Counted from the stretch's first letter, positions 48,930 to 63,609 are shown. The stretch is 64,000 nucleotides of DNA from an uncultured delta proteobacterium (GCA_963785725.1 CAWAWS010000002.1:1-64000), one strand, 5' to 3'. Made by a program: numbers and translations. The notes: a model not told the origin generated them from the sequence alone.

Positions 48930-50128
48930 CCGAATCTGTCGCCGGACGACGCGCTCGGAAGCTGCGTATCTCGCTCATCATCGTCGCCTTGGCGGCGACG
49001 GCGCTCGCTCTTGGCGCTGGGCATGATGCTGCGCGCCGAGGCGCACGTGAACAAGGTCGCGCTCGCCGACGCGCCGCGCCCGGTGTCGGTCGTGACGGCG
49101 CGCGCCGAGACCTACCGCAAGCCGCGCCATTACGTCGGCACGCTTCGCCCGTGGGTCGAGGCCAACGTCGGCCCGCAGTTCGTCTCGGCCTACGTCGACA
49201 CCGTGCTCGTGCGCCCGGGCGCGCACGTCAAGCGCGGCGAGGTGCTCGCGACGCTCGACTGCCGCAACGCGAGCACGGCGAGCGCGCGCCGTCGCGATCG
49301 CAGGCGCGCGCCATCGAGGCGCGGCAGAAGGCGATCGCCGACGAGTCGCAGCGGCAGTCGAAGCTGCTCGACGGCGGCTTCGCGTCGGCCAACGAGGTCG
49401 AGCAGGCGCTGGCGCAGAGCGGCGGCCGAGGCGGCGCAGCTCGAGGCGCAGAAGGCGCACGCTCGCCCGCTCGACGCTCGAGGTCGAGCGACTGCGTCCT
49501 GCGCGCGCCCTTCGACGGCGAGGTCGGCGACCGCTTCGTCGACCCGGGCGCGTTCGTGCGTCCGGGCACGGCTATCGTCTCGGTCGTCGATCGCAGCACG
49601 GTGCGCTTCGTCGCCGACGTGCCCGAGGTCGGACTTCGACGTCGTCGCGCCGAAGACGCGCCGTGCACATCCACGTCGACGCGACCGGCCAGCAGCTCGA
49701 CGGCAGCATCGCGCGCCGCGCGCCGCACGCCGACGCCGACGCGCGCACCGTTCACTTCGAGGTCGACCTCCCCAACCCCGGTCGCGACGATTCCCGTCGA
49801 CACCACGGGCGAGGTCACGATCGGCTTCGGGGCGCCGATCGCCGTCACCGCGATCCCGCTCTACGCCGCGACGGTCGCGCAACGGCAAAGCCACCGTCTT
49901 CAGCGTCGACGGGCGACATCGCGCACGCGACCAGCGTTCGTCGTGCTCGGCGAAGCCGGCGGCACGCTCTTCCTCGAGCCGACGCTCGCGCCGGGAACGC
50001 GCGTCGTCACCGAAGGGCGCGCGCTCTTGAACGACGGCGACGCGTCGCCGCCGGCATCGACCAACTCGCCGAGCAGCAGCTCGGGCAATCGACGGCCGCG
50101 CCCGCGCCACAGCGGTGGCGCGCGATGA
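48926..50128 (+). CDS. RND periplasmic adaptor (MFP; several apparent frameshifts)
   Basis: VLVRPGAHVKRGEVLA, VLRAPFDGEV, VDPGAFVRPG, RTVHFEVD, VVTEG. Confidence 0.85.
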   Translation: MTESVAGRRARKLRISLIIVALAATALALGAGHDAARRGAREQGRARRRAAPGVGRDGARRDLPQAAPLRRHASPVGRGQRRPAVRLGLRRHRARAPGRARQARRGARDARLPQREHGERAPSRSQARAIEARQKAIADESQRQSKLLDGGFASANEVEQALAQSGGRGGAARGAEGARSPARRSRSSDCVLRAPFDGEVGDRFVDPGAFVRPGTAIVSVVDRSTVRFVADVPEVGLRRRRAEDAPCTSTSTRPASSSTAASRAARRTPTPTRAPFTSRSTSPTPVATIPVDTTGEVTIGFGAPIAVTAIPLYAATVAQRQSHRLQRRRATSRTRPAFVVLGEAGGTLFLEPTLAPGTRVVTEGRALLNDGDASPPASTNSPSSSSGNRRPRPRHSGGAR

Positions 50129-53100
50129 CCTGGCTGTCGCTGCGCAACCCGATCGCGATCCTGATGCTGTGCGTCGGGCGTCATCGTCTTCGCGTGCGTC
50201 GTCACGCCGCGCATGAGCGTCGACACGTTCCCCGAGCTGACGCCGCCGGTGCTCATCGTCGGTGAGGTCGCGCCCGGGCTCGCGGCCAAGGACGTCGAGA
50301 AGGCCGTCGCCTGGCGCATCGAGCGCTACGTCGCGGCCACGCCCGGCGTCGACCACGTCGAGAGCCTGTCGCGCAACAACTTCGCGCTCATCTACGTGTG
50401 GCTCAAGTGGGGCACGGACCTCAGCGCCGCGCAGACGCTCGTGCAGTCGGAGGCGGCGTTCGCGATGGCCGGCGCGCCCAAGTCGCTCGGGCTCTTGCCG
50501 CCGTTCGTCCTGCAGTACGACCCGTCGAACGCGCCCGTCTGCCAGATCGTCATCACCGGCGCGGGCTACAGCGGCTCGCAGCTCTACGACTACGCGCAGA
50601 ACTACATCGAGCCGCAGATCGAGGGCATCGACGGCGTCGGCAGCGCGCCCGTCGACGGCGGGCGCCCGCGGCAGATCAACGTCGTCGTCGACCCGGTCAA
50701 GGCGCAGGCGCGGCACGTCACGGCCGAGGACGTCGCCGCCGCGGTCGGCCAGCGCCAACGCGCTCCTGCCCTCGGGCGAGTTCATCGCGCCGAAGCTTCG
50801 ACGCCAACGTCTACACCAACGGCGTCCCCAAGGACGTCGCGACCATCGGCGAAGGCACGGTCAAGGTGGTCGACGGCAAGCCGGTCCTGCATCAAGGACG
50901 TCGCGCGGCGTCGAAGACGGCGGCATGCCGCAGACGCAGGTCGTCTCCGTCAACGGCCGGGACGCCGTCTACCTCAACGTCCTGCGCATTCCCGGCGGCA
51001 ACACGATCGCAGATCGTCGACGCCGTCAAGGACAAGGTCGCGCACCTGACAGCCTGCCGCCGGGCATGCACGCGGCAGGTCTACTTCGATCAGTCGACGT
51101 TCGTGCGCACCACGTACGACGGGCTGAAGCGCGAGATCGTCCAGGCGCTCGTCCTCATCGCCATCGTCATCCTGATCTTCCTGCAGAGCCTGCGCGGCAC
51201 CCTCATCGTCTCCGTCGCCATCCCGCTGTCGTTCGCGATCACGCTCATCGTCCTCTACGCCAGCGGGCCAGACGCTCAACGCGTTCACGCTCGGCGGGCT
51301 GACCTGGCGATGGGCCGGCTCGTCGACGACGCGGTCGTCGTCCTCGAGTCGATCCACCGCCACCGGCAGCGCGGGCATGGACGCCGCGACGGCCGCGCTC
51401 GAAGGCGCGAACGCCGTGGCGCTGCCAGTGCTCGCGTCGACGCTGACGACGATGGCCGTGCTCTTGCCCGTGCTGCTGCTCGCCGGCCTGGCAAAGCGGC
51501 TCTTCGCGCCGCTCGCGCTGACCGTCGCCGTGGCGATGATCGCGTCCTACTTCGTCAGCCTCGCGGTCACGCCGGTCGCCTGCCGCTACTTCCTGGGCCA
51601 CGGCCGAGCCGGGCGGCCTGGCGCGCACGTTCGAGCGGCTCATCGACCGACTCGCCGACGGCTACGCGAGCGCGCTCGGCCGCGTGTTGCACGCGCGGCC
51701 GGCCATCGTTCTCGCGTCGCTGGCGCTCGTCGTCGTGCAGCGTGTGGGCGGCGGCGCGCCTGCCGAGCACGTTCTTCCCCGAGATCGACGAGTCGATGGA
51801 GATGCTCTACGTCCGCTTCGCGCCCGGCATCTCCGTCGTCAGACGCGGCCGAGCGAGCTGTCGGCGATGGGCGCGACGCTTGAAGCGCGAGCTGCCGCCG
51901 GGGACGATTCGCGATGATCGTCACCAACATCGGCATGCCCGCAGGAGCAGCGCAGCCTCCTCGCGAGCCCGAACGTCGCGCCCAACACCGGCTTTCTGCG
52001 GCTCGCCTTCGCGCCGCCCGAAGATCGCACGCTGTCGCAAGGCGAGATCGTCGTCAAAGCGCGCGAGATCCTCACCCGCGAGTTCCCCGGCGTCGAGGTG
52101 CTGCAGTATCCGGGCGGCCTCGTCGCCAGCGTGTTCGCCAACGGCTACACCGCGCCGCTCGTCGTCGAGCTGCAGAACGAGGACCTCGGCGCAGCTCGAC
52201 GCCGAGGCGCGCGCCGTCGCCGCCGTCGCGCGCAACACGTGCCCGGCGTGCGCGACGTCAAAGAGTCGATGCAGATGGACTACCCCGAAGTGCGCGTCGA
52301 GACCGATCGCGAGCGCTCGGGCTTCGTCGGCAGCTCACTGCGCGACGCGGCGCAGGCGACGCTCGAAGCGACCACCGGCAACATCAACACGCCCGGCGTC
52401 TGGGTCGACGCCAACAACGGCCGCGCCTACTACGTCGTCACTTACTACGACGGCAAAGTGGTCACCGACACGCAGTCGCTCGGCGCGCTGCCGGTGCACT
52501 ACAGCAAGGACAAGCGGCCGGTGCTGCTCGGCGCCTACGGCAACGTGCATCGCACCGTCGGCGCTGTCGCCGTCGAGCGCAGCCGCATGCAGCGCGTCGC
52601 GCACGTGCTCATGCAGACCGAGGGGCGCGACCTCGGCTCGGCCGCCGGCGAGCTCGACCGCCGCCTCGCCGCCGACCCGCGCACGCGCCACATTCGCTAT
52701 CGCTTCGTCGGCCAGGTCGACCTCATGCGCACGACCTTCTCGGGCCTCGGCGCTCGCGCTTGGCGCTGGCGGTGATGGTCGTGTTCATGATCATGGCCTC
52801 GCAGTTCAAGTCGCTGCGCTTGCCGTTCGTCATGCTGTTCACGATTCCGGTGGCGCTCTTCGGGATCGTCTTGGCGCTGCTCGCCGCCGGTCAGGGCTTC
52901 TCGATCACCGCGCTCATGGGCGTGCTGATGGTCATCGGCATCGCGGTGTCGAACGGCATCCTGCTCGTCGACGACGCCAATCGCCGCCTCGTCGAAGGCG
53001 CGCCGGCGGAAGTGGCCATCGTCGAAGCGGCGCGCTCGCGCTTCGTGCCCATCCTCATGACGACGCTGGCGACCATCATCGGCCTCATTCCGACGGCGAT

Positions 53101-53263
53101 GGCGCTCGAGCACGGCTCGGAGGCCAATCAGCCGCTGGCGCTGGCCGTCGTCGGTGGCCTCACGTCGTCGACGGTCATCTCGCTGTTCCTCGTGCCGGTG
53201 ATGTTCCTCTTCTTTGCCAAGCGCGGCGGGCAGCCGATTCCGGGCGAGACGCACCACGTCTAA
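50125..53263 (+). CDS. AcrB/AcrD/AcrF-family RND permease (many apparent frameshifts)
   Basis: LRNPIA, VDTFPEL, AIPLS, GRLVDDAVVVLE, F.PLALTV, GIAVSNGILLVD, R.VPILMT, PLA.AVVGGL across frames. Confidence 0.9.
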
Positions 53264-53270
53264 CGAGCCG

Positions 53271-54986
53271 CTAGAAGTTGATCTGCAAGCGGAACAGCAG
53301 CTCGTGCTCGTAACGGTGGAAGAAGAGGTTCTTCTCGATCAGCGCCGACGTCGCGTGTGAATCGCCGCCGCCGACGTAGTTGAACCCGTAGTTGGCCATG
53401 AGGCGCGCGTTGCGCGTGACCCAAAAGTTGGCGCCGGCCAAGAGCGTGTCGAGCTGATAGTGCCCTTGCGCCGGGTCGAACGCGGCGTGCGTCGTCGCCG
53501 TGGGCGGCAGGTCGATGATGCCGAGCTCGTTGTGCTCGTAGCGCAGCGCGAGCTGCACGGCCCAGCGCGGCAGCGGCGGCGGCGAGTAGCCCTTCCAGTG
53601 CGGCACCGTGTACAAGCCGGGATGGTCGACCTCGAGCGGCCCGCCGATCCACGCGTAGACCTCGGCGTAGCCACCGTAGCCGTCGAGAAAGCCGCGCGGC
53701 CCGGCGGTGCGCGCCGTCGTCGTGTCGTCGTAGCGGCGCACCTGCTGCGACTCGTGCAGGAATTCGCCGCGCAGACCGAAGCGCTCCGTCAGCGGCACGT
53801 TGAGCTCGATGGCGTACTTCAGCGTCGTGCCGTCGGGCGCCAGGTGCGAGCGGACGGCGTTCTTGCTGGCGTCGGTGCCGTTGCCGTAGTTGCTGCTGAA
53901 GATCGAAAAGCCGCTCTCGGTCGATAGGCCGCCGACGTCGCCGGCGGTGGCGCCCGTCGTCGATGGCGCGCTCGATCCGCCGACGTTGTCCGAGCGCTGC
54001 CACCAGAACGACGCGCCGATCCAAATCTCCTCCATCCAGCGCGCGTGATTCGGCACGAGCGAAATCGGCGCGACGAAGCCGCGACCCAACACCGCCGGCT
54101 GGTTATCGAGGTTCTTGAAGCCCTGCCCTTCGCCGTTAAAGATGCCGACGTAGTAATGGCCGAGATGACGCGGCAAAACGCCGTGCACCATCGCGCCCGT
54201 GTCGCGCGTCTGCGGCACGGCGAAGCGAATCGGCGACGCCTTCTCCAAGAAGTCGGTGTAGTTCTCGGTCGTCATGTTCTCGAGCGAAAACGGCGGATAG
54301 AACTGCCCGACTTGCAGCTGCAGCCACGGCACGATGTTGATGTCGGCCTCCGCAATGGCCGCCGTGCTGTATTGGCCGCTCGACGGCACCGTCGCCAGCT
54401 CGGCCTCGATGCGGAAGTCGATGACCTTGACGAACGTGCCGGCCATGCCGAGTCGCGCGCGGCGAATGAAGACGGTGTCGCGCAAGGTAGCCCGCGGATC
54501 GGCGGCGCTGTTGGGCACGACGCCGGCGGGCGGCGCCGGTCGATTGAGGAAGTTGTACCAATCGATGTTGATGCGCCCCTTCGGGATGAGCACGAACCAG
54601 CTATGGCGATCGCGCAGGAAGAAGCTCTTCTCCGAGTAGCCGGCCAGCGGCGCCAGCAGCTCGGGATCGTCGCCGCGCGTCGACAAGGCGGGCACCGCCA
54701 GCGTCGTGCGCGAGCCGAGCGACGGCGGCGGCGCGTCGGCGGCAGGTAGACCGGACGCCCGTTGCAGTCGCTGAATCTCGACGCGCTGCTGCTGCACGAC
54801 CTCTTCGAGCTGCTGCTGCCGCCGTAACACCTCCGCGAGCGTGTCGGTGTCGGCGGCCTGGACGTCCGTCGCCGTGACCGCGGCATCGGGCGCGCCTCCG
54901 TCAGGCGTGACGACGTCCGAATCCGCCGACGCCGCACGCCCAATACCGAGCAGCAGCAGCACGAGCAACACGCTTCGCAACGACAT
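53271..54986 (-). CDS. OprO/OprP-like (phosphate-selective-type) porin
   Basis: Signal peptide, coiled coil, IRRARLG, GQF.PPFSLE, RDTG.M, G.FNG.G, terminal RLQINF. Confidence 0.82.
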   Translation of the reverse strand: MSLRSVLLVLLLLGIGRAASADSDVVTPDGGAPDAAVTATDVQAADTDTLAEVLRRQQQLEEVVQQQRVEIQRLQRASGLPAADAPPPSLGSRTTLAVPALSTRGDDPELLAPLAGYSEKSFFLRDRHSWFVLIPKGRINIDWYNFLNRPAPPAGVVPNSAADPRATLRDTVFIRRARLGMAGTFVKVIDFRIEAELATVPSSGQYSTAAIAEADINIVPWLQLQVGQFYPPFSLENMTTENYTDFLEKASPIRFAVPQTRDTGAMVHGVLPRHLGHYYVGIFNGEGQGFKNLDNQPAVLGRGFVAPISLVPNHARWMEEIWIGASFWWQRSDNVGGSSAPSTTGATAGDVGGLSTESGFSIFSSNYGNGTDASKNAVRSHLAPDGTTLKYAIELNVPLTERFGLRGEFLHESQQVRRYDDTTTARTAGPRGFLDGYGGYAEVYAWIGGPLEVDHPGLYTVPHWKGYSPPPLPRWAVQLALRYEHNELGIIDLPPTATTHAAFDPAQGHYQLDTLLAGANFWVTRNARLMANYGFNYVGGGDSHATSALIEKNLFFHRYEHELLFRLQINF

Positions 54987-55024
54987 TCGCGATCTCCAGG
55001 CGCACATGACGCCGGATCGCGTTG

Positions 55025-55058
55025 TCCGTTATAACGGATAAAATGTCAATATAACGGA
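55025..55058. promoter_or_regulatory. Palindromic operator TCCGTTATAACGGA plus adjacent half-site upstream of the porin
   Basis: Perfect 14-bp palindrome at 55025-55038; TATAACGGA again at 55050-55058; TTGACA on the minus strand at 55044-55049. Confidence 0.7.
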
Positions 55059-55675
55059 TGCGCGTGCTGGTGCGAATGCGGCAGGAACTGCGCGACCAGA
55101 TACAGGCGCGCTTCGACGGAGGCGCGATTGATGAAGGCGTGCGGCGAGTCGGAGAGGAAATGGATGGCATCGCCGAGCTCGAGCTGCTGGAGCTGCGAGT
55201 CCCACTCGATGTCGAGCGCGCCCCCAGCGACCACGAGGTTGACGAGCGTGCCGGGCGGATGCGCCTCCGACCGCACGATCGCGCCGGGCTGCAGCGTCAG
55301 CTCGTAGGTCTGCACCGCGGTCGTCCGCTCTTGCGGACGCAACGGCCGCGACGCGATTAAGGAGTCGCGCGACCGCACCCAGCGCGCCGTCTCTTTGCGC
55401 ATGATGACCGTCGGTGAGCGCGGCTCCGCGAGCAGCGCGCTGGTGGTCGTGCCGAGCGCGCGGGCGATCGCCGGCACGATGTCGAGGGACGGCCACTGCA
55501 GCCCGAGCGAGAAACGGCGCAAGGTCTTCACGTCGACGCCCGAACGCTCGGCCAGCGACTCCAAGGTCAGCTTGCGCTCGCGTCGCAGCCGCTCGAAGTT
55601 TTCACGCCAGCGTTCGCACAGCTCCTCGTCGCTCTCGCGCAGAGGTCGCATGGCCGTGGGCGATGGCGTGGACAC
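55046..55675 (-). CDS. XRE HTH + cupin transcriptional regulator
   Basis: LRRERKLTLESLAERSGV...PSL..IARALG; cupin EAHPPGT...L.LGDAIHF.SDSPHAF.N. Confidence 0.9.
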   Translation of the reverse strand: MSTPSPTAMRPLRESDEELCERWRENFERLRRERKLTLESLAERSGVDVKTLRRFSLGLQWPSLDIVPAIARALGTTTSALLAEPRSPTVIMRKETARWVRSRDSLIASRPLRPQERTTAVQTYELTLQPGAIVRSEAHPPGTLVNLVVAGGALDIEWDSQLQQLELGDAIHFLSDSPHAFINRASVEARLYLVAQFLPHSHQHAHPLY

Positions 55676-55712
55676 CTCGTCCAGAGCTACCGGAAGCGGC
55701 CGACTCAGTCCC

Positions 55713-55728
55713 TAAGGCATCCACCTTA
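55713..55728. promoter_or_regulatory. TAAGG-N6-CCTTA box 2
   Basis: TAAGGcatccaCCTTA upstream of the XRE-cupin gene. Confidence 0.75.
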
Positions 55729-55763
55729 GACGCGGCGATAGCACTCGGCGACGCCCGACGTTA

Positions 55764-55777
55764 TCCGTCATAGCGGA
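55764..55777. promoter_or_regulatory. Second copy of the TCCGT-N4-(A/G)CGGA operator
   Basis: TCCGTCATAGCGGA, 12/14 identical to 55025-55038, upstream of the XRE-cupin gene. Confidence 0.6.
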
Positions 55778-55788
55778 CGCAGGTGCGC

Positions 55789-55977
55789 TTACGGCTCGCG
55801 GCGCTCGCAGTAGCCGTTGACGCACCACTGGCTGCAGCAGTCGCGGCTGTGCTGACAGACGGTGCCCGAGTCGATGCACATCTCTTCAGGCTTGACCAAG
55901 GAGAACATGCGCTCGCGCTCGGCGCCGCAACCCGCCAACAGCGCCGACGCCAAAACCAGAGACGCGAAAAGCTTCAT
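55789..55977 (-). CDS. Small knottin-like lipoprotein, copy 2
   Basis: Lipobox LLAGC; CIDSGTVCQHSRDCCSQWCVNGYCERREP; same length (62 aa) as copy 1. Confidence 0.85.
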   Translation of the reverse strand: MKLFASLVLASALLAGCGAERERMFSLVKPEEMCIDSGTVCQHSRDCCSQWCVNGYCERREP

Positions 55978-56012
55978 AAGGCGAGCATGAAGTCGTCGAC
56001 GCGCTGACCCCA

Positions 56013-56066
56013 TAAGGCCGTGACCTTAGGCGGTAACGATTTCGTCTAGCTAAGGTCACTGCCTTA
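56013..56066. promoter_or_regulatory. TAAGG-N6-CCTTA boxes 3 and 4 in a divergent promoter region
   Basis: TAAGGccgtgaCCTTA (56013-56028) and TAAGGtcactgCCTTA (56051-56066). Confidence 0.8.
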
Positions 56067-56141
56067 TAGGGCGCGCACACGCGAGCCATCAGACTTCGGG
56101 CATCACGCAGCGGCTGCCTTGCCGGCGGCGGCGCGACCCCG

Positions 56142-56999
56142 ATGAGAATGCTGACAGCGACATTGCTAAAGTTGCCGATGGCGATGCTGCTGACGTGCTC
56201 GACGTCGGCGTGGGCGGCGCCGGTGCGGGCGCTCGCTGCCGATACGGGACCGCCGCTCGTCGCGACCAAGTGGGCGGCGGTCGGGTTCGCGGTGCTGGCG
56301 GTGCTGCTGGCGACCCTGCTTTACGCGTTGCCGACACGCGCGGCGGCCGCCACCAAGCGTCAGCTCGAGCTGGCGCTCGGCGAGCGCGCGCTCACGCTGC
56401 AAGAGGAAGATCGCCGTCGCATCGCGCGCGAGCTGCACGACGGCGCGGGTCAGGCGCTGACGGCGGCGCGATTGCAGCTCATGGCGCTGCGCGAAGGCGT
56501 GACCGCGGCGCCGCGCGAAACTATCGGCGCCATCGTCGGCTATGTCGACGAGGCCATCGACGAGGTGCGGCGATCGACGACGGCACTGACGCCGCCGGCC
56601 TTGGCCGAGCTCGGGCTCGTGGGCGCGATCGTGCGGCACTGCGACACGTTCACGGCCAGCGCTCGACTGAAAGTAAACCGCGAGCTGCCGACCGAGCTGC
56701 CGTCGCTGCCGTCGTACGTCGAGACGACCATCTACCGCAGCGTGCAAGAGGCGCTGCACAACGCCGCGCGCCACGGCGGCGCCACGCAAGCGTGGGTGCG
56801 CCTCGCCGTCGACGGCGGACAGCTACGGCTCGAAGTCGGCGACGATGGCGCCGGCATCGCCGACCAGGCGCAGCGCGGCTTCGGCCTCGGCTCTATGCGC
56901 GAGCGCGCCCAAATCGCCGGCGGCGCGCTCACGGTCGTCGACGACGCCGGGCCGGGCGCGCGCATTCGCATCACAGTGCCGTTCGAAGTAGTCGCCTGA
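56142..56999 (+). CDS. HisKA_3 sensor histidine kinase, copy 2 (no adjacent regulator)
   Basis: Close paralog of 44353..45207; ERALTLQEEDRRRIARELHDGAGQALTAARLQL is identical. Confidence 0.93.
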   Translation: MRMLTATLLKLPMAMLLTCSTSAWAAPVRALAADTGPPLVATKWAAVGFAVLAVLLATLLYALPTRAAAATKRQLELALGERALTLQEEDRRRIARELHDGAGQALTAARLQLMALREGVTAAPRETIGAIVGYVDEAIDEVRRSTTALTPPALAELGLVGAIVRHCDTFTASARLKVNRELPTELPSLPSYVETTIYRSVQEALHNAARHGGATQAWVRLAVDGGQLRLEVGDDGAGIADQAQRGFGLGSMRERAQIAGGALTVVDDAGPGARIRITVPFEVVA

Positions 57000-57253
57000 T
57001 TCGTGCTTCCCTCGCGCACAAGACGAAGGGCAGTCGACCTCGCCGCGTCGTCGGCCCGTCATCCTTCGCCGGCGGAGCGTCTAGGGTGCCTATCTTATCG
57101 AGCTGACGATCGTTCGCCTCTAGCCTGATCCGGCGATGACTCGGCAGCGGCGACAGCGCGACCACTCTGCGGCGAATGCTGTGGCGAACCCGGTCGACTG
57201 CTACAATGCCGTGCGTGAGCAGCCGATCCAACGAACGGCTCGCCGGCCGTGCG

Positions 57254-57481
57254 ATGCGCCGCTCCGGCGAATACGTCGCGCAATGGAAGAAGGCGGCCAA
57301 GAAAGAGCGCGGCTGCAAGGTGTGTGGCGCGTCGCGATTGCGCAAGAAGGAGCTGGGCGAAATGCTCGACCTGACGCCGCGCAAGGACGTCAAAGCGCAG
57401 CGCAAGGCGATTCGCTTGGCGGCCGCGCAGCTAGCGGGATATTGCAGCACCAAGTGCCGTCAGCTCACCGAGCAGGCGTGA
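57254..57481 (+). CDS. Small basic protein with CxxC...CxxxC (possible Zn finger)
   Basis: CKVCG...YCSTKC; Lys/Arg-rich; precedes the Sel1 gene. Confidence 0.6.
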   Translation: MRRSGEYVAQWKKAAKKERGCKVCGASRLRKKELGEMLDLTPRKDVKAQRKAIRLAAAQLAGYCSTKCRQLTEQA

Positions 57482-57503
57482 CGCGGTATCGCGCGACTGA
57501 CGC

Positions 57504-58148
57504 ATGATGCGCGGTCGCAGCACCGCCGGCTTCGTATGCGTCGTGCTGACACTCGCTGCTTGCGCCGGCACTCGACCCGCCAGCCGCGCTGACCCCATCG
57601 ACACGTGCACGCCGGGCAACGCCGCTGCCTATCACGAGCGTGCCCGCGAGCTCGAGCAGCGCGACCCGGCCGCGAGTCTTCGCGCGCTATCTTGCGCGTG
57701 CGTGCTGGAGCACGCCGAGTCCTGCTACGACCTCGCCGTTTACGAAGCGGACCACGGCGGAATCTCCAGCGCCGTCACCCACTACGAGCTCGCGTGCCGA
57801 CTGCGCCACGCGCCAGCCTGCTACAACCTCGGCACTTGTCTCGTCAGCGGTCCGTGCCCGAGCGACGCCACGCGCGGCGCGCAGTTGCTCCGTCAAGCCT
57901 GCGAAGGCGGCGTACCGCACGCCTGCCTCAATCTCGGCAACAGCTACGTTCTCGGCCGCGGCGTCGAGCGCCGCCCCGACGAGGGCGTGGCGCTTCTCGC
58001 GCGCACCTGCGACGCCGGCGTCGCCCTCGCCTGCTACAACTTGTCCGTCCTCTTGACCACCGGCCCGGTCGCGCACGACGAAGCACGCGCCGCCGAGCTG
58101 CGTGAGCGTGCGTGCCGCGGCGGCGTCGAAGGCGCCTGCGCACCGTGA
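57504..58148 (+). CDS. Sel1-like repeat lipoprotein (Cys-rich, Hcp-like)
   Basis: LAAC lipobox; repeated AC.....AC.NLG....G.GV.....A units. Confidence 0.88.
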   Translation: MMRGRSTAGFVCVVLTLAACAGTRPASRADPIDTCTPGNAAAYHERARELEQRDPAASLRALSCACVLEHAESCYDLAVYEADHGGISSAVTHYELACRLRHAPACYNLGTCLVSGPCPSDATRGAQLLRQACEGGVPHACLNLGNSYVLGRGVERRPDEGVALLARTCDAGVALACYNLSVLLTTGPVAHDEARAAELRERACRGGVEGACAP

Positions 58149-58174
58149 GACTCGTTGCAACCTTGGGAGAAGAG

Positions 58175-59179
58175 ATGCTCCGCCCGAAGATTCACTCGAT
58201 GCCGCGGCTCGGCCGCTTGCTCGCCGCGGTCTGTCTCTGCACGTCCATGGTCGCGCGTGCCGCCGACCCGACTCCGCCGCCGCCCGTTCCCAAAGTGGCG
58301 ACGCGAGCGCTCGTCATCTCCATCGATGGGCTGCGTCCCGATCTCTTGCTGCGCGCGAACACACCGAACATTCACGCGCTGCTCGATGCGGCGAGCTTCA
58401 GCTTCTGGGCGCGTACGACTGAGCTGTCGATCACGCTGCCGTCGCATACGAGCATGCTCACCGGCGTCGTCCCCAAGACGCACGGCATCCAGTTCAACAA
58501 CGACGGCGGCCCCGACGATCCGATTGCGCCTTCGGTGCCGACGCTGTTTCAGCTCGCCCATCGCGCCGGCTACTCGACTGCGCTCGTCGCCGGCAAGAGC
58601 AAGTTTCACATCCTCGCGAAGGACACGACGTACAGCCAATATCCGCCGCGCAAGCACGAGTTTACGGACGACGAGACGGCGACGCGTGCGGCCGAGCTCA
58701 TCCTCGCGCACGCGCCGGACGTCATGTTTGTGCACTTCGGCGACGTCGACGCCGCGGGCCACTCGGTGGGCTGGGGCAGCGCCGAGCAGATGGCCGCCAT
58801 CGCCCGCGCCGATGCCGCCGTCGGCATGGTCCTGACGGCGCTCAAGATCAAGAAGCTCTATCAGTCGACGGTCATCATCATCTCGGCCGATCACGGCGGC
58901 ACAGGCCGCTGGCACGGTCCGAACGACCCGCGCGCGCGAACGATTCCGTGGATCGCGCTTGGCCCCGGCATCAAGGCGAACAACGACCTGTCGGCGATTC
59001 GCGACCTCTCGATCAACACCGAAGACACGTTCGCGACGGTGTGCGCGCTGCTCGGCATTACCGTTCCAGGCGCGATCGATGGCAAGCCCGTCTGGCAGAG
59101 TCTACAGCCACCGACGCCGACCGCCGGCGCGACGTTCCCGACTCAGTCGGCATCAGCGCCGTTTACGCCCCCCAAGTAG
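58175..59179 (+). CDS. Alkaline-phosphatase-superfamily (NPP/phosphodiesterase-type) enzyme
   Basis: ISIDGLRPD, SITLPSHTSMLTG, D.AGH..GW, SADHGG..RWHG. Confidence 0.88.
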   Translation: MLRPKIHSMPRLGRLLAAVCLCTSMVARAADPTPPPPVPKVATRALVISIDGLRPDLLLRANTPNIHALLDAASFSFWARTTELSITLPSHTSMLTGVVPKTHGIQFNNDGGPDDPIAPSVPTLFQLAHRAGYSTALVAGKSKFHILAKDTTYSQYPPRKHEFTDDETATRAAELILAHAPDVMFVHFGDVDAAGHSVGWGSAEQMAAIARADAAVGMVLTALKIKKLYQSTVIIISADHGGTGRWHGPNDPRARTIPWIALGPGIKANNDLSAIRDLSINTEDTFATVCALLGITVPGAIDGKPVWQSLQPPTPTAGATFPTQSASAPFTPPK

Positions 59180-59247
59180 ACGGCTCGTCGACAACCTTTG
59201 ATGCGGCAGACCTTCGCCACCAAGAATCGATGTAAAGATACGCTCTC

Positions 59248-60243
59248 GTGAAAAGACGCCCTCTTATTGACCGTCGCTTTGGAAGAACAGATTCTGACGG
59301 CATGGACAGGAAGCGTCGCCGCGAATCCGGTTCCGCGAAAGCGACTCTCACGGATCGCGAAATGATGTTGCGCGCCGTTGCGCTCGCTCGAAACTGCAGG
59401 AGTGAGAAAGGAAAGACATCCCCAAAGGTCGGCGCGGTCGTCGCCCGCGATGGCCGAGTCCTCGGCGAGGCTTTCCGGGGCGAGCGCAAGCCAGGACAGC
59501 ACGCGGAGTTCACGCTTCTCGAAGGAAAGCTCTCGGAAGAGCTGCTCGCCGGCGCGACCCTGTTCACGACGCTCGAACCCTGCACATCGCGTAATCACCC
59601 GAAGATCCCGTGCGCAGAACGGATCGTCGAGCGGCGCATCGCACGAGTCTTTATCGGAACCCTCGATCCGAACGACCGAATTCGTGGCCGCGGCGAGCTG
59701 CGGTTACGGGACGCGGGCATTCACATCGCGCGGTTCGACTCCGATCTGATGGCAGCGATCGAGGAGATCAACCGCGAGTTCACACGTTCCCAACGCACGG
59801 GTCCGATGGAACGAAGCCCGTCCCAGACCCATGACCCCGTTTCACCGGATGAAGTCGGTCCGAATGGTCACCGAATCGGCTACACGAAACGTGGCGACAA
59901 GGTCGAATGGATTCCAGACGAGGAGCATCCGAATCGGGAATGGCCTCTTCTGCTCAGACGCAACGACAAGTCGATCCTTAAGGAATACAAAGAGCATTGG
60001 GACAAGGTTTGGTGGAACAGGCATCAGAACTGGGTCCATCGAATAAAGACGGGCGAAGAGCAGCTTACGGCGGAGCAAAAGCCCGTATTTGAGCGAGCGC
60101 GCAAAGCTGCAAAGCGAATCGAGAAAAAATACGGGCGGAAGAATCTGGGCTGGGACGACTTCGAGTGGGGCCTGTTGAGCGGACGGTTGTCTGCTCTGTC
60201 GTGGGTACTCGGATCTGAATGGAACGAGTCTCTCGACACGTAA
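59248..60243 (+). CDS. Zn-dependent deaminase (RibD-N/dCMP-type) fused to an unassigned Trp-rich C-terminal domain
   Basis: [30 protein letters not shown]-terminus WDKVWWNRH...[26 protein letters not shown] is not a RibD reductase. Start may be 59302. Confidence 0.85.
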
Positions 60244-60519
60244 GATCATTGCATACGTCACTGTAATTGAGCATGACGGATTGCGCCGAAAATGCCGTTC
60301 GCTGCTAATTGTGAAGATCGCTGAGCTTTCCTTTTTACGCGGGTAATTCGCGACAAAATCGCAGCACTATTATTCGGCTAAGCGCGCAGAACTATTGAGT
60401 CGGTTTTTGAGACTGGCGAGAATTTATATCGCCAATGAGCGCGGACAGTTAACCGATTGGGGCAGGAAAATCGCGCCGCGCGCCCCCAAAACGACGACTC
60501 CTCATCGTTAAAGCCGTCT

Positions 60520-61439
60520 TCAAATAAGGATTTCGTCGACTAATAGCGCCCACGGATGCGGCTTCGATCGCCTGTTGTCCGCCTTCTCTTCTATCTGCTC
60601 GAAGCCGGTCCAGATCTCGTCGCGGTAACGACGTGGCGTCGGCTCGCTGCTGACCGCGTTCGGCAAGCCCGCAATGACTACGAGCCCCTCATCTTTTCGG
60701 TCGTCAATCGCAGCGACCACGCGAACGACAACACGAATTGGCGTACCATTTGACGCGTGGACTTGGAGCGCGCGCGTCTGGGCGGCGTCCATCGTGATGA
60801 CGGTGAGCAAGAAGGGCCTCGGCAACGTGCCAATGCGACGGCCAATCTCGAAACGAGCGCCCGTTGCGTGCGGGATTCCAAGGACGAGGCAATCCGAGTA
60901 CCGCAGGCCGCGTTGGCTCGTGACCTCGCCATCGACGTAGTAACGCTCGCCGGCGTGGGCCGCGTAAGCAGTGAAGACCTCGACCAACTGCGCCGGGCCG
61001 AAGGGCGGAATAGGGCCGTTCTTAGTCGACACCGACGGTCGCTCGCCCGCCTTTCGTTCCGCGGCAACGAAGACGTCTAAGCTGGAACGGGGTGGCAGCT
61101 CGTCGGCGATGCGTGACGCCTTGGCGGGAGCCGCAGGCGCCTCGGTCGCCTGGAGCTCCATCCAGTCAACCTCGCTCGTGCCAAGCGCTGTGAGCGCAGC
61201 GCGATGTTCTTGAGCGTCTTTGGGTACACCCAGGACCGCCGACCATGCTCGAGATCGATGATGGTTTTGGCGTCGACCTCGGCTTCGGCAGCCAGATCGC
61301 GAATCGAAACTTCGACGTCGTTCCGAAGCTCGCGCAGACGCTTGCCGTTACAGGCGATTCTCTGGCCGCGCGTCACTTCGACGGTTCTACCAAAGACACG
61401 ACGGGTCGGCCAGATGATGGAGTCCGCTGGAGAGTCCAC
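60520..61439 (-). CDS. XRE-HTH protein with C-terminal domain, split by one apparent frameshift near 61200
   Basis: NGKRLRELR...SIRDLAAEAEVDAKTIIDLEHG..YPKTLKNIA continues in another frame as AALTALGTSEVDWMELQ into ORF 60520..61161. Confidence 0.65.
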
Positions 61440-61496
61440 CGCGCACCACCGGGCTCTATCCTTGCCGCACCATGCGCCACGCTAAACCCTCACGTA

Positions 61497-62126
61497 ATGA
61501 GCGAGAGCGAGCTCGACGATCAGCGGCTGCTGGAGCAAGTCTGCAACCGCAACCCGCGCGCCTGGTGCGTGATGGTTCGCCGCCACGAGTCGCGGCTGCG
61601 CGAGGCCATCCGCGAGGCTGCCGACGCGGATGCGCCGCTTCGCACCGACCAAGTGGACGACGTCGTCGGCGACCTGTGGCTGCTCTTGCTGGAAGACGAT
61701 CTGCGACGGCTGCGCAGCTTTCATGGCGACGACCTCGGCGCATGGTTAGCGATGGTCGCTTGTCAGGTCGCCATGAACCGCATTCGCGAGCTGGCGCGCG
61801 AACCGCCGACCGAGCCGCTCGACGAAGAGCTTCACGCTCATGCAGCGTCCGATAACGAGAAACGAATTATCGTAAATCATTCAACTCGACCGAAAGTTGA
61901 ATATGTCACTGTATCCGAGGCTGCTCGCGCACTGAGCGTCTCGCCCAAGACCGTCTATCGCCTGGTCTGGCGCGGCGAGCTGCCTTCGAGGCGGGTCGGC
62001 CGAACCCTCCGCATCGCTTCCTCCGCGCTCACCGTCGCTGGCGGGTCGGCTCCCAGGGCTGGAATTGGTCGGACCAGCATGATAGAGTCCAAGCGTAGGT
62101 CGCGTTCCGGCATGGGAGCTCGATGA
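61497..62126 (+). CDS. ECF sigma region-2-like domain fused to an excisionase-type HTH
   Basis: DDQRLL...AW..MVRRH...DDVVGDLWLLLLEDD.RRLRSF.G..LGAWL..VA...AMN.IR, then YVTVSEAARALSVSPKTVYRLVWRGELPSRRVGRTLRI. ATGA overlap with the integrase. Confidence 0.8.
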   Translation: MSESELDDQRLLEQVCNRNPRAWCVMVRRHESRLREAIREAADADAPLRTDQVDDVVGDLWLLLLEDDLRRLRSFHGDDLGAWLAMVACQVAMNRIRELAREPPTEPLDEELHAHAASDNEKRIIVNHSTRPKVEYVTVSEAARALSVSPKTVYRLVWRGELPSRRVGRTLRIASSALTVAGGSAPRAGIGRTSMIESKRRSRSGMGAR

Positions 62127-63325
62127 TGCCGGCGTACAAGGACGAACGAGATGGTCAATGGAGATGGCGGCGCATAATTCGATATTGGGACGGCCGAAAA
62201 GTAAGGGAAAGAGGTACGCCCCAAATCAACACGAAGGAAGCCGCGATTGCGGACGAGACGCGCGCAATCCGCGAAGCGGAGAAGCCGCCGGCCGCCAAAC
62301 CGAAGGAGGTGCCGACACTACGACAGTGGATTTGGGGCGCGGTCGATCCTGAGCCGCGCAGCGCAAAGCCGAAGGGACGTTTCTGGATGGAGTGGGTGTT
62401 GTCGAAGGAGAACAAGGCGAGCGAGATGGAAGCGAGGCTGTCGATCTATCGGCACCACCTCGGGCCGGCGTTCGGCGACACGACGCTGGACGAGATCGAC
62501 ATTCCTGCGATTGCTCGCTTCCGCACGTCGCTGCGGCAGGACAAGCAGCTCACCAAGAAGACGTGCAACAACATCCTCGCCGTCCTCAGCAAGACGCTGC
62601 GGTACGCGGCGGACGCGCAGGTCATCACGCACGCGCCCAAGGTCGGTCTCTTCAAGCTCGAGCGTCCCGAGATCGAATATTGGGACTATCGGCAGTACGC
62701 GCGCGTTCTCGAAGCCGCGCGGCGCGAAGGCGCCGAGTGGTACGCGGCGGTCTGCTTGGCTGGCGAGGCAGGCTTGCGCGTCGGCGAGGTGCGAGCGTTG
62801 CGCTGGCGTGAGGACGTCGACCTCGTCGCCGGAACGATCACGGTCAACGAGCAGACGCGTCATGGTGTCACGGGCACGCCGAAGGGCGGACGGCGACGCA
62901 AGATTCCGATGACGCAAACACTCGTCGCGGCGCTCAAGCGGCTCGACGTCGTTCGCAGCGGTCTCGTCGTCCGCAATCTGGACGGCTCGCCCAAGAGCGA
63001 TGGCGAGACGACGCACGCCATCCGTCGAGTCTGCCGCGGGGCAGGCTTGCCGGAGACCGGCTGGTATCGCCTGCGACACACCTTCGGGACGCACGCAGCG
63101 CTGCTCGGGCTCAACCCGTTCCGGCTGCAGGCGTACCTCGGGCATCGCTCGATGAACGAGACGATGCTCTACGTGCACCTGGCCGAGGCGCACTCGCGTC
63201 CGACGCCGCCCGAGATCCTGCGAGCAGCCGAAGGCGAGACCGACCCCGATCGACGCGTCCTGGCCATGCTCGGTGGCCGCATCGGCGTGCCGCGTGGCCA
63301 GGAACAGGAGCTCGCCATGGCGTAG
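62123..63325 (+). CDS. Tyrosine recombinase/integrase
   Basis: GLRVGEVRALRW (R), TPKGG (K), YRLRHTF (HxxR with H>Y), LGH, TMLYVH (Y); arm-binding-like N-terminus. Confidence 0.93.
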   Translation: MMPAYKDERDGQWRWRRIIRYWDGRKVRERGTPQINTKEAAIADETRAIREAEKPPAAKPKEVPTLRQWIWGAVDPEPRSAKPKGRFWMEWVLSKENKASEMEARLSIYRHHLGPAFGDTTLDEIDIPAIARFRTSLRQDKQLTKKTCNNILAVLSKTLRYAADAQVITHAPKVGLFKLERPEIEYWDYRQYARVLEAARREGAEWYAAVCLAGEAGLRVGEVRALRWREDVDLVAGTITVNEQTRHGVTGTPKGGRRRKIPMTQTLVAALKRLDVVRSGLVVRNLDGSPKSDGETTHAIRRVCRGAGLPETGWYRLRHTFGTHAALLGLNPFRLQAYLGHRSMNETMLYVHLAEAHSRPTPPEILRAAEGETDPDRRVLAMLGGRIGVPRGQEQELAMA

Positions 63326-63334
63326 CCCGATCGC

Positions 63335-63355
63335 CGTGGCCACAGCGTGGCCACA
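63335..63355 (+). repeat. Direct repeat CGTGGCCACA x2 (candidate integrase arm site)
   Basis: 11-bp period; related GTGGCACC x2 at 63591-63609. Confidence 0.6.
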
Positions 63356-63384
63356 ACTCGTTTTCGACCAATAGGCCCAAAACG

Positions 63385-63416
63385 AAAAAGCCCCAAGTCC
63401 GAGAGGACTTGGAGCT
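63385..63416 (-). terminator. Rho-independent terminator downstream of the tRNA fragment
   Basis: AGCTCCAAGTCC-TCTC-GGACTTGGGGCT followed by TTTT on the minus strand. Confidence 0.8.
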
Positions 63417-63425
63417 GAAAAGCAA

Positions 63426-63453
63426 TGGAGCGGGAGACGGGACTTGAACCCGT
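63426..63453 (-). mobile_element. att core: 3' fragment of a tRNA, probably tRNA-Gly
   Basis: ACGGG-TTCAAGT-CCCGT T-arm, CTCCCGC acceptor strand, U73 and CCA; no D or anticodon arms upstream. Confidence 0.85.
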
Positions 63454-63590
63454 CAAGGCAGGAAATCGAAAACCGGAGGCGCGACGCTGGCTTGCGACGT
63501 ATCCTCTGATTTTAACTGCCGATTTCTCCTTGGGTACGGTCCATTTCACTCCGGCTCAAACCGCCTCGGAACCTTCAAATCCGGAGCGCT

Positions 63591-63609
63591 GTGGCACCCG
63601 CGTGGCACC
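63591..63609 (+). repeat. Direct repeat GTGGCACC x2 (candidate arm site on the other side of the core)
   Basis: 11-bp period, same orientation as the 63335 repeats. Confidence 0.55.

Follow-up and report, generated by a model that had tools for sequence, protein, structure and literature searches.

A RibD-like deaminase fused to an unnamed C-terminal module: a candidate single-protein phage-defence gene in an uncultured delta proteobacterium

The stretch of DNA analysed here (the window) is the initial 64 kb of contig 2 in an assembly from an uncultured delta proteobacterium (GCA_963785725.1 CAWAWS010000002.1:1-64000). Towards its right-hand end lies an uninterrupted open reading frame (ORF) that joins a zinc deaminase domain to a C-terminal module without a family name, at the end of a small integrase-bearing element (Table 1). 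This gene had been singled out as island cargo and a candidate anti-phage gene in an original prediction made from the sequence alone. Here we report that the same module is found on a range of effector domains, several of them known from immunity, and that the gene probably encodes a single-protein effector-plus-sensor defence system, in which an effector clade not described before is joined to the unnamed module.

The ORF has a GC content of 0.592 and a GC content at third codon positions (GC3) of 0.685. A start at ATG 59302, giving a protein of 313 amino acids (aa), or at ATG 59362 (293 aa) is more likely than one at GTG 59248, because homologs are 293, 301 and 312 aa long and the first 19 residues are poorly conserved. 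The database entry for the window's own protein (P0001, 100% identity) is the 293-aa call from ATG 59362. Promoter and terminator scans around the gene gave nothing informative.

The N-terminal half is a member of the zinc deaminases of the cytidine deaminase (CDA) fold. Pfam PF00383 (dCMP_cyt_deam_1) matches residues 36-137 with E 1.1e-12 and 48.2 bits against a cut-off of 25 bits, and the complete HAE and PC-x9-C motifs that had originally been noticed are both present in the translation, with H67, E69, P93, C94 and C104 (numbering of the 313-aa form) invariant across 58 homologous sequences. The closest sequence match in the PDB is E. coli RibD (2g6v, E 4.1e-20), which spans the entire deaminase domain and has in common with it the stretches P.VG.V, HAE, TLEPC..PC and DPN..GRG..L..AGI. 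Two NCBIfam RibD models likewise match the deaminase half only (model positions 1-145, ORF residues 36-185; best E 6e-22), with 75-78 bits (best 77.8) against cut-offs of 156 and 500. Neither Pfam nor NCBIfam scans found the RibD_C reductase domain in the ORF, and the last ~146 residues have no family match in Pfam, NCBIfam or PADLOC, which agrees with the description of the tail as some 150 aa unrelated to the RibD reductase. The linker between the two halves is less conserved than the domains themselves (mean column conservation 0.60 versus 0.79).

The genome carries its own complete ribD on contig 5, where deaminase and RibD_C domains lie within one 500-aa frame. Among 30 genomes drawn from the genus, family and order of the host, 29 gave a match to the deaminase domain only, at 32-43% identity, and none of the matches listed extends past query residue 167 into the module. 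The absence of RibD_C, the separate ribD and the lack of a listed match to the module in these relatives rule out the window gene as the riboflavin enzyme of the cell.

The C-terminal module proved to be widespread. With the 146-aa tail as query, a full HMMER scan over 1.84 billion cluster representatives returned 1010 matches at E<=1e-3, of which 444 reach E<=1e-10 and 80 reach E<=1e-30. The module-bearing proteins are 75-509 aa long, stand-alone versions of the module also occur, and in most of the 150 proteins listed the match reaches the last residues. An alignment of 32 short versions identified as conserved the stretches GPNG..GY...GDKVEW, LRRND, DKVWWNRHQ, RIE.KYG..NL and DFEWGLL.GRLSALAWVLG.EW.ESLDT-COOH, in which G127 and W134 (module numbering) are invariant and S130 and A131 nearly so. 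A protein Atlas search with the module led to 'hypothetical protein' clusters only.

The domains that precede the module are diverse. Fifty representatives, 48 fused forms and two stand-alone ones, were scanned in Pfam: the N-terminal domain was dCMP_cyt_deam_1 in 16, DUF4062 in one (P0123, 22.2 bits, under the 24.7-bit cut-off), TIR_2 in one (P0145, E 3.9e-29) and radical SAM with sigma70_r4 in one (P0196), while the other 31 had no Pfam match. A search of species-representative genomes confirmed 124 relatives, of which 80 were retained as loci, 59 of deaminase type and 21 matching the module only. DUF4062 was found in all four tested loci of the 355-459-aa class (above the Pfam cut-off in L061 and L073, just under it in L074 and L078), L065 encodes Mrr_cat (E 4.5e-9) fused to the module, and two-helix membrane N-termini precede the module in L062 and P0121. 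The module also matches 27 plasmid records, most of them annotated 'PIN domain-containing protein'. In one such protein, from an Aeromonas plasmid, PIN_12 occupies residues 4-181 (Pfam E 1.3e-28) and residues 234-335 align with the module's helical part (hhalign probability 99.6%, E 8.9e-25), the beta sub-domain being unaligned. Since 41 of the 46 plasmid records that match this protein do so over at least 80% of its length, PIN_12 followed by the helical module is the standard architecture of that family. The occurrence of the tail on PIN-like proteins and the idea of a swappable module, both put forward in the original prediction, are thus borne out.

A further indication of exchange comes from the NIR (DUF4062) domain of the module-bearing protein at L061, which is 43% identical over 161 residues to the NIR of an E. 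coli DUF4062 protein. The C-terminus of the latter gave an hhalign probability of 0.1% against the module, and homology between the two was rejected. A single NIR effector clade is therefore found with more than one kind of C-terminal domain, as expected for interchangeable sensor or regulator parts.

The AlphaFold2 model of the module, built from 150 aligned sequences, has a mean predicted local distance difference test score (pLDDT) of 94 and shows a bundle of three helices preceded by three short strands. No convincing relative was found in the PDB by Foldseek (best E 0.85), by a profile search (best E 0.35) or by VIA-align against 48,161 chains (best Z 5.8, helices only, in unrelated proteins). 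The full-length model of the 313-aa form (pLDDT 86.2, predicted template modelling score 0.53) consists of two confident domains; because the linker (residues 160-180) is modelled at a pLDDT of only ~62, their mutual arrangement is left unpredicted.

An oligomerisation role had been suggested for the tail, and the modelling of two copies supports it. The complex prediction of the module scored 0.80 and the best of three controls 0.01; among proteins of solved structure, 20 of 30 that are pairs of one chain reach this mark, against 1 of 23 that are single chains. Individual runs have at least 69% of contacts in common, with a partner pLDDT of at least 82, and the predicted interface is formed by the last helix (module residues 118-137) together with residues 50-61. 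The model thus supports a symmetric homodimer assembled through the WDDFEWG..G.LSAL.WVLG helix, and would explain why the small residues G127, S130 and A131 are conserved. The conserved polar DKVWWNRHQ helix is not among the confident interface residues of the complex model and is a candidate surface for contact with a ligand, a trigger or the effector.

With the full-length protein as query, a word-indexed search found 2698 proteins at E<=1e-3, the best 120 of which, with the window's own 100% entry set aside, are 68-78% identical over 88-97% of the query. Full-length relatives, about 57-78% identical, occur in more than ten phyla; their taxa include Acidobacteriota (Terriglobia), Chloroflexota, Binatia, Verrucomicrobiota, many Actinomycetota, Gemmatimonadota, NC10, Myxococcota, Pseudomonadota, Burkholderiales, Planctomycetota and Latescibacterota, among others. 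Identity is independent of taxonomy, the proteins of other Myxococcota (69-73%) being no nearer than those of distant phyla, and the deaminase and the module are equally conserved, with a median identity of 0.74 each. Together these two features indicate horizontal spread under strong constraint. The module has no tblastn match in 50,697 phage records and was found in a single locus in a pattern scan of IMG/VR, on which grounds a phage origin was rejected. The lone structural near-match in BFVD, a borderline one, is A0A8S5R321, a 92-aa protein of Siphoviridae sp. ct6d71 (Foldseek E 2.9e-3, target TM score 0.72, 25% identity over 102 columns). This phage-encoded look-alike of the dimerising helices could be a stand-alone module or an interfering mimic.

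Table 1. Features of the deaminase-module gene and of the DNA around it (positions in the window).
Feature	Position	Strand	Evidence or remarks
Whole ORF	59248..60243	+	Uninterrupted, 331 aa from GTG; stop TAA 60241-60243
RibD-type CDA-fold zinc deaminase domain	59353..59802	+	Residues 36-185 of the 331-aa ORF; Pfam, NCBIfam and PDB sequence match
H-A-E catalytic/zinc motif	59500..59508	+	Read in translation
P-C-x9-C zinc-binding motif	59578..59613	+	Read in translation
Linker between both domains	59803..59856	+	Poorly conserved, low-confidence model
Unnamed C-terminal module	59857..60240	+	Three-stranded beta unit (GPNG..GY..GDKVEW), then three-helix bundle (DKVWWNRHQ ... ESLDT-COOH)
Last long helix, predicted symmetric homodimer interface	60154..60213	+	Module residues 118-132, 134-137 (complex model)
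Alkaline-phosphatase-superfamily phosphodiesterase	58112..59179	+	Pfam Phosphodiest E 1.2e-28; directly upstream of the deaminase gene
213-aa ORF of the low-GC3 element	60520..61161	-	No Pfam, NCBIfam or PADLOC match
Small helix-turn-helix (XRE-type) regulator	61077..61439	-	HTH_19/HTH_31/HTH_3, all under Pfam cut-offs
Sigma-70/extracytoplasmic function (ECF)-like region fused to excisionase-type HTH_17	61245..62126	+	Pfam, NCBIfam partial matches
Tyrosine integrase	62123..63325	+	Phage_integrase E 5.4e-23; 1.9 kb from the deaminase gene
27-nucleotide copy of tRNA-Gly(GCC) 3' end	63426..63452	-	Attachment (att)-type junction; 3.2 kb from the deaminase gene

In the window the deaminase gene is the low-GC3 end cargo of an integrase element of ~4.2 kb (~59.2-63.45 kb). 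GC3 is 0.83-0.90 in the left neighbours and 0.69-0.81 in the four genes to the right up to the integrase, and the left boundary of the element, set by GC3 only, lies between 59179 and 59302. The original prediction had described the gene as AT-richer than its left neighbours and about 2 kb from an integrase, and in these respects, as in its assignment to an island, it was correct. Its att site about 3 kb away corresponds to the tRNA-Gly fragment. No intact tRNA gene is present inside the 64-kb window, and the intact tRNA-Gly(GCC) is found on the minus strand of contig 2 at 87239-87313, ~24 kb beyond the fragment. There it is adjoined by a second integrase (contig 2 86197-87313 region) with 71% DNA identity to that of the window. 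Two islands thus lie in tandem at tRNA-Gly, with the deaminase gene in the distal small one.

Between the deaminase gene and the integrase, the 213-aa ORF is convergent with the former and separated from it by an AT-rich spacer of 276 nucleotides (nt). The fusion of a sigma-70-like region with HTH_17 is unusual, and lies directly upstream of the integrase, overlapping its start. On the other side, the phosphodiesterase gene has a host-like GC3 (0.843) and a product whose N-terminus, by reading, resembles a secretion signal; its matches in the 30 relatives are only 35-41% identical, a second match is found on contig 17 (39%), and no homolog occurs in the flanks of the 80 related loci. Positions 54700-62300 are without a syntenic DNA match in four genomes of the same genus, whereas the efflux pump genes at 48971-53226 are matched there at 72-75%; strain-specific DNA may thus begin to the left of the compositional island. 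Rfam microRNA matches in the window were attributed to chance.

The surroundings of the homologs are variable. All-against-all clustering of 3716 ORFs from the 80 loci revealed no conserved neighbour, the clusters consisting only of the gene itself, of ORFs antisense to it and of neighbours restricted to particular clades. The two closest ORFs on either side were surveyed at 38 of the 59 deaminase-type loci, 142 ORFs in all (L016 has no left ORF, L018 and L020 were dropped as repeats of the neighbourhood of L009, and L044-L060 lie outside the survey), with PADLOC v2.0 at E<=1e-10 and with Pfam. Homologs in riboflavin operons had been named at the outset as a sign against a defence gene, and Pfam identified no riboflavin-synthesis family among the 142 neighbours. 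Defence and mobile-element genes are frequent there, in keeping with the defence association that had been proposed: in an uncontrolled count, 18 of the 38 loci have a PADLOC match within two ORFs, 10 of them judged specific and eight generic (methylases, helicase, helix-turn-helix peptidase, dCMP-deaminase domain, cyclase, TniQ and similar). The specific matches are HmaA (L011), a type IIG restriction-modification protein (L015), PDC-M24A and PDC-M24B (L023), LmuB (L024), an Old/AriA-like protein (L028), a CBASS cyclase with phospholipase (L029), IetA (L034), SduA with PDC-S02 (L039), PDC-S13 (L040) and PDC-S15 with PDC-S06 (L041). Mobile-element genes identified by Pfam lie in seven loci, comprising integrases (L008, L025, L032), a resolvase (L022), relaxases (L008, L019), a transposase (L039) and TniQ (L043), and other Pfam neighbours include Abi_C, Shedu SduA_C, HEPN and OLD-type ATPases.

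Some settings are particular to individual loci. In the Solirubrobacterales loci L009, L012, L021, L018 and L020 a 335-aa YaaC-like gene always follows ~20 nt downstream (Pfam E down to 5e-20), a partner not seen at the other loci. At L037 (475-2402) the homolog stands beside genes for thymidylate synthase (thyA) and dihydrofolate reductase, and at L030 (6533-7075) beside a separate 181-aa dCMP-deaminase-like gene that matches the PADLOC dCTPase model with E 3.7e-30. The PIN version of the module protein is found on Aeromonas hydrophila plasmid pMCR5_045096 (L083, 1213-11536) within a Gamma-Mobile-Trio element (GmtY, VPA1269-family, GmtX), where its PIN_12 gene lies between DUF2971 (PDC-S31) and an 865-aa ATPase (PDC-S06, 1118 bits). 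An abundance of defence genes is reported for Gamma-Mobile-Trio islands, and GAPS1, 2, 4 and 6 of these islands were rejected as identities for the module protein, since their domains as described there differ (10.1101/2023.03.28.534373).

The intact motifs of the deaminase, the exchange of immune-type effectors in front of the module, its organisation as a single gene, the patchy spread across phyla and the mobile and defence-related surroundings are consistent with an anti-phage function of the abortive-infection type, carried out by a single protein with a nucleotide-deaminating effector, and we lean, if not strongly, towards this as the role of the gene. The defence role, the autoinhibition, the trigger and the substrate are what we infer. 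According to this model the RibD-like zinc deaminase half would be the effector, and the ~130-aa C-terminal module, as a dimer held together by its conserved last helix, would regulate or sense and so keep the deaminase inactive until an infection cue appears. The deaminase would then convert a small molecule of the nucleotide type, our best guess being a cytosine- or guanine-type ribo- or deoxyribonucleotide, and its deamination would starve or poison phage replication.

Several observations weigh against such a function. Domains that sense phage proteins by binding them tend to diverge quickly, and a module ~74% identical across phyla fits better with a structural or conserved-ligand role, for which its unusually high conservation argues, than with the sensing of phage proteins. 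The natural reaction of RibD is biosynthetic, not toxic. No model of PADLOC v2.0 matches the window protein or the module, and the fused relatives are matched by their effector halves only. A left att site was not found: 55000-63600 contains no direct repeat that would mark it, and a second copy of a 17-nt core, allowing 3 mismatches, is absent near the element. Several neighbours of the homologs are plainly housekeeping genes, 20 of the 38 surveyed loci are without a PADLOC match, and the neighbour count, taken over 38 of 59 loci, has no matched control and relies on crude ORF calls and single hidden Markov model matches. For comparison, a chance baseline of 3.9% is given for defence systems within ten genes, by another method, in 10.64898/2026.09.04.749371.

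The same defence logic could be served by an effector that edits nucleic acids, mutating or inactivating phage or host polynucleotides through their DNA, mRNA or tRNA bases. Polynucleotide-deaminase families in Pfam do match the same domain (Inv-AAD, which is AID/APOBEC-like, E 1.3e-10; MafB19-deam, E 1.7e-6), as do TadA-type enzymes (E ~3e-7 in the PDB, 1.7e-7 in NCBIfam). These rank behind RibD, however, whose matches are far stronger (E 4e-20 versus 3e-7) and cover the whole domain, including the DPN..GRG stretch, which holds the ribose-phosphate of a small-molecule substrate, and we consider polynucleotide editing unlikely.

Quite unlikely, in our view, is a selfish or other conflict function, in which the protein would act not against phage but as an addiction toxin of the element, or as a factor in anti-plasmid or inter-element competition. 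The genes lie in mobile or variable DNA beside integrases, relaxases and transposases, and PIN, Mrr, TIR and membrane effectors are also typical of toxins, but the 80 loci hold no conserved antitoxin-like neighbour, two of the partner effectors, NIR and TIR, are on record as acting in phage defence, and CBASS, Shedu and Lamassu-type genes are among the neighbours. Very unlikely, finally, is an ordinary metabolic deaminase of riboflavin, pterin or pyrimidine salvage with a dimerisation or regulatory tail, for although the domain is ~40% identical to that of RibD with all catalytic motifs, the homologs at L037 and L030 have the neighbours described above, and the tail is predicted to dimerise and CDA enzymes are oligomers, the same tail is found on TIR, NIR, Mrr, PIN and membrane domains, the related genomes with their RibD-like deaminase matches gave no listed match into the module, rib genes are missing from the surveyed neighbourhoods, and the distribution is patchy and horizontal and the GC3 foreign.

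Beyond the single-protein defence function that we favour, a bolder extension, which we regard as doubtful, is that the tail founds an unrecognised pan-bacterial superfamily of one-gene immune systems that sense a conserved small molecule or host-state cue, the RibD-like effector bringing a new nucleotide-depletion chemistry. Such a superfamily would embrace at least seven effector types (deaminase, NIR, TIR, Mrr, PIN_12, membrane and radical SAM), and by analogy with the action of RibD on its GTP-derived substrate the effector would remove the 2-amino group of a guanine-type nucleotide rather than deaminate cytosine. Sensing of a small molecule or host state would explain both the ~74% identity across phyla and the polar DKVWWNRHQ face off the dimer interface.

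If the defence reading that we favour is true, one unnamed module of ~130 aa unites thousands of orphan proteins (2698 matches to the full-length query; 1010 module clusters), and what is annotated as 'DUF4062', 'PIN domain-containing' or 'pyrimidine deaminase RibD-like' becomes one family of single-gene immune systems. A RibD-type deaminase would join the known defence effectors, and a compact, highly conserved sensor or dimeriser would be gained. The family is concentrated in phyla of soil and sediment, which are poorly covered by defence catalogues centred on E. coli.

Among known proteins the window protein is nearest to RibD in its deaminase, with the HAE, PC..C and DPN..GRG stretches in common, and differs in having neither RibD_C nor a rib context, in a genome with a separate ribD. 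That a CDA-fold zinc deaminase can act against phage by altering nucleotide pools is an established principle from dCTP deaminases and AvcD. The original prediction had drawn on dCTP-depleting deaminases, and this kinship did not hold at the level of the family: the window protein shares the fold but belongs to the RibD clade, no PADLOC model for dCTP-deaminase defence matches it at E<=0.01, and Pfam and NCBIfam find no P-loop kinase-like domain of the AvcD type, so that membership of the dCTP-deaminase/AvcD family is ruled out. 'RibD-like' was absent among the matches listed in a literature search for phage-defence deaminases, and no paper treating DUF4062, deaminase, TIR and phage together was found. 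The protein probably belongs to the general kind of single-protein effector-plus-sensor defence, in view of the alternative immune effectors that carry its module, its single gene and its defence and mobile neighbourhood.

The PIN_12 relatives provide a second comparison. The ~350-aa DUF4935 proteins are described as mono-cistronic, with an unexplained C-terminal region (Matelska et al. 2017, PMC5499597). In the ~335-aa PIN_12 proteins the module of the window protein is represented by its helical part, the differences being the effector and the unaligned beta sub-domain. Cosus/Brc24, encoded in a mobile integron, is reported to block phage T7 as a single PIN_12 protein (10.1101/2024.07.02.601719). 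The mutant residue numbers given for it agree with neither of two plasmid PIN_12 proteins, a comparison of numbering and not of sequence.

The coupling of an effector to a putative ligand-binding domain recalls Vesta, described as VstA (NIR with an uncharacterised C-terminal domain) acting with the alkaline phosphatase VstB (10.64898/2026.09.04.749371), and Metis, described as a nucleotide-sensing effector with a phosphatase (10.1101/2025.11.05.686725). As in Vesta, a gene of the alkaline phosphatase superfamily stands directly upstream on the same strand in the window. This neighbour, however, has host-like GC3, an apparent secretion signal and no homolog beside relatives of the deaminase gene, and its composition together with its absence from the flanks of the 80 loci rules it out as a Vesta-like partner.

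DUF4062 (NIR) is described as the TIR-like NADase effector of Avs proteins, Swarozyc, Vulcan and Vesta, and NIR and TIR are reported by experiment to be NAD-depleting defence effectors (10.64898/2026.05.01.722283; 10.64898/2026.09.04.749371). In Swarozyc the C-terminal auxiliary (AUX) domain is reported to bind the phage portal and to be needed for defence (10.64898/2026.05.01.722283). The window protein differs from Swarozyc in its effector, a deaminase in place of the NADase, and has no DUF4062 match; its module is also unlike the C-terminus of the one E. coli DUF4062 protein compared, whose identity as EcSwz is unconfirmed. In common with Swarozyc (KpSwz), on the other hand, it places an N-terminal enzyme and a C-terminal non-catalytic domain on one polypeptide, the two share horizontal spread and a location in defence islands (10.64898/2026.05.01.722283), and the module-bearing sisters of the window protein carry the NIR domain that is 43% identical to that of the E. 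coli DUF4062 protein.

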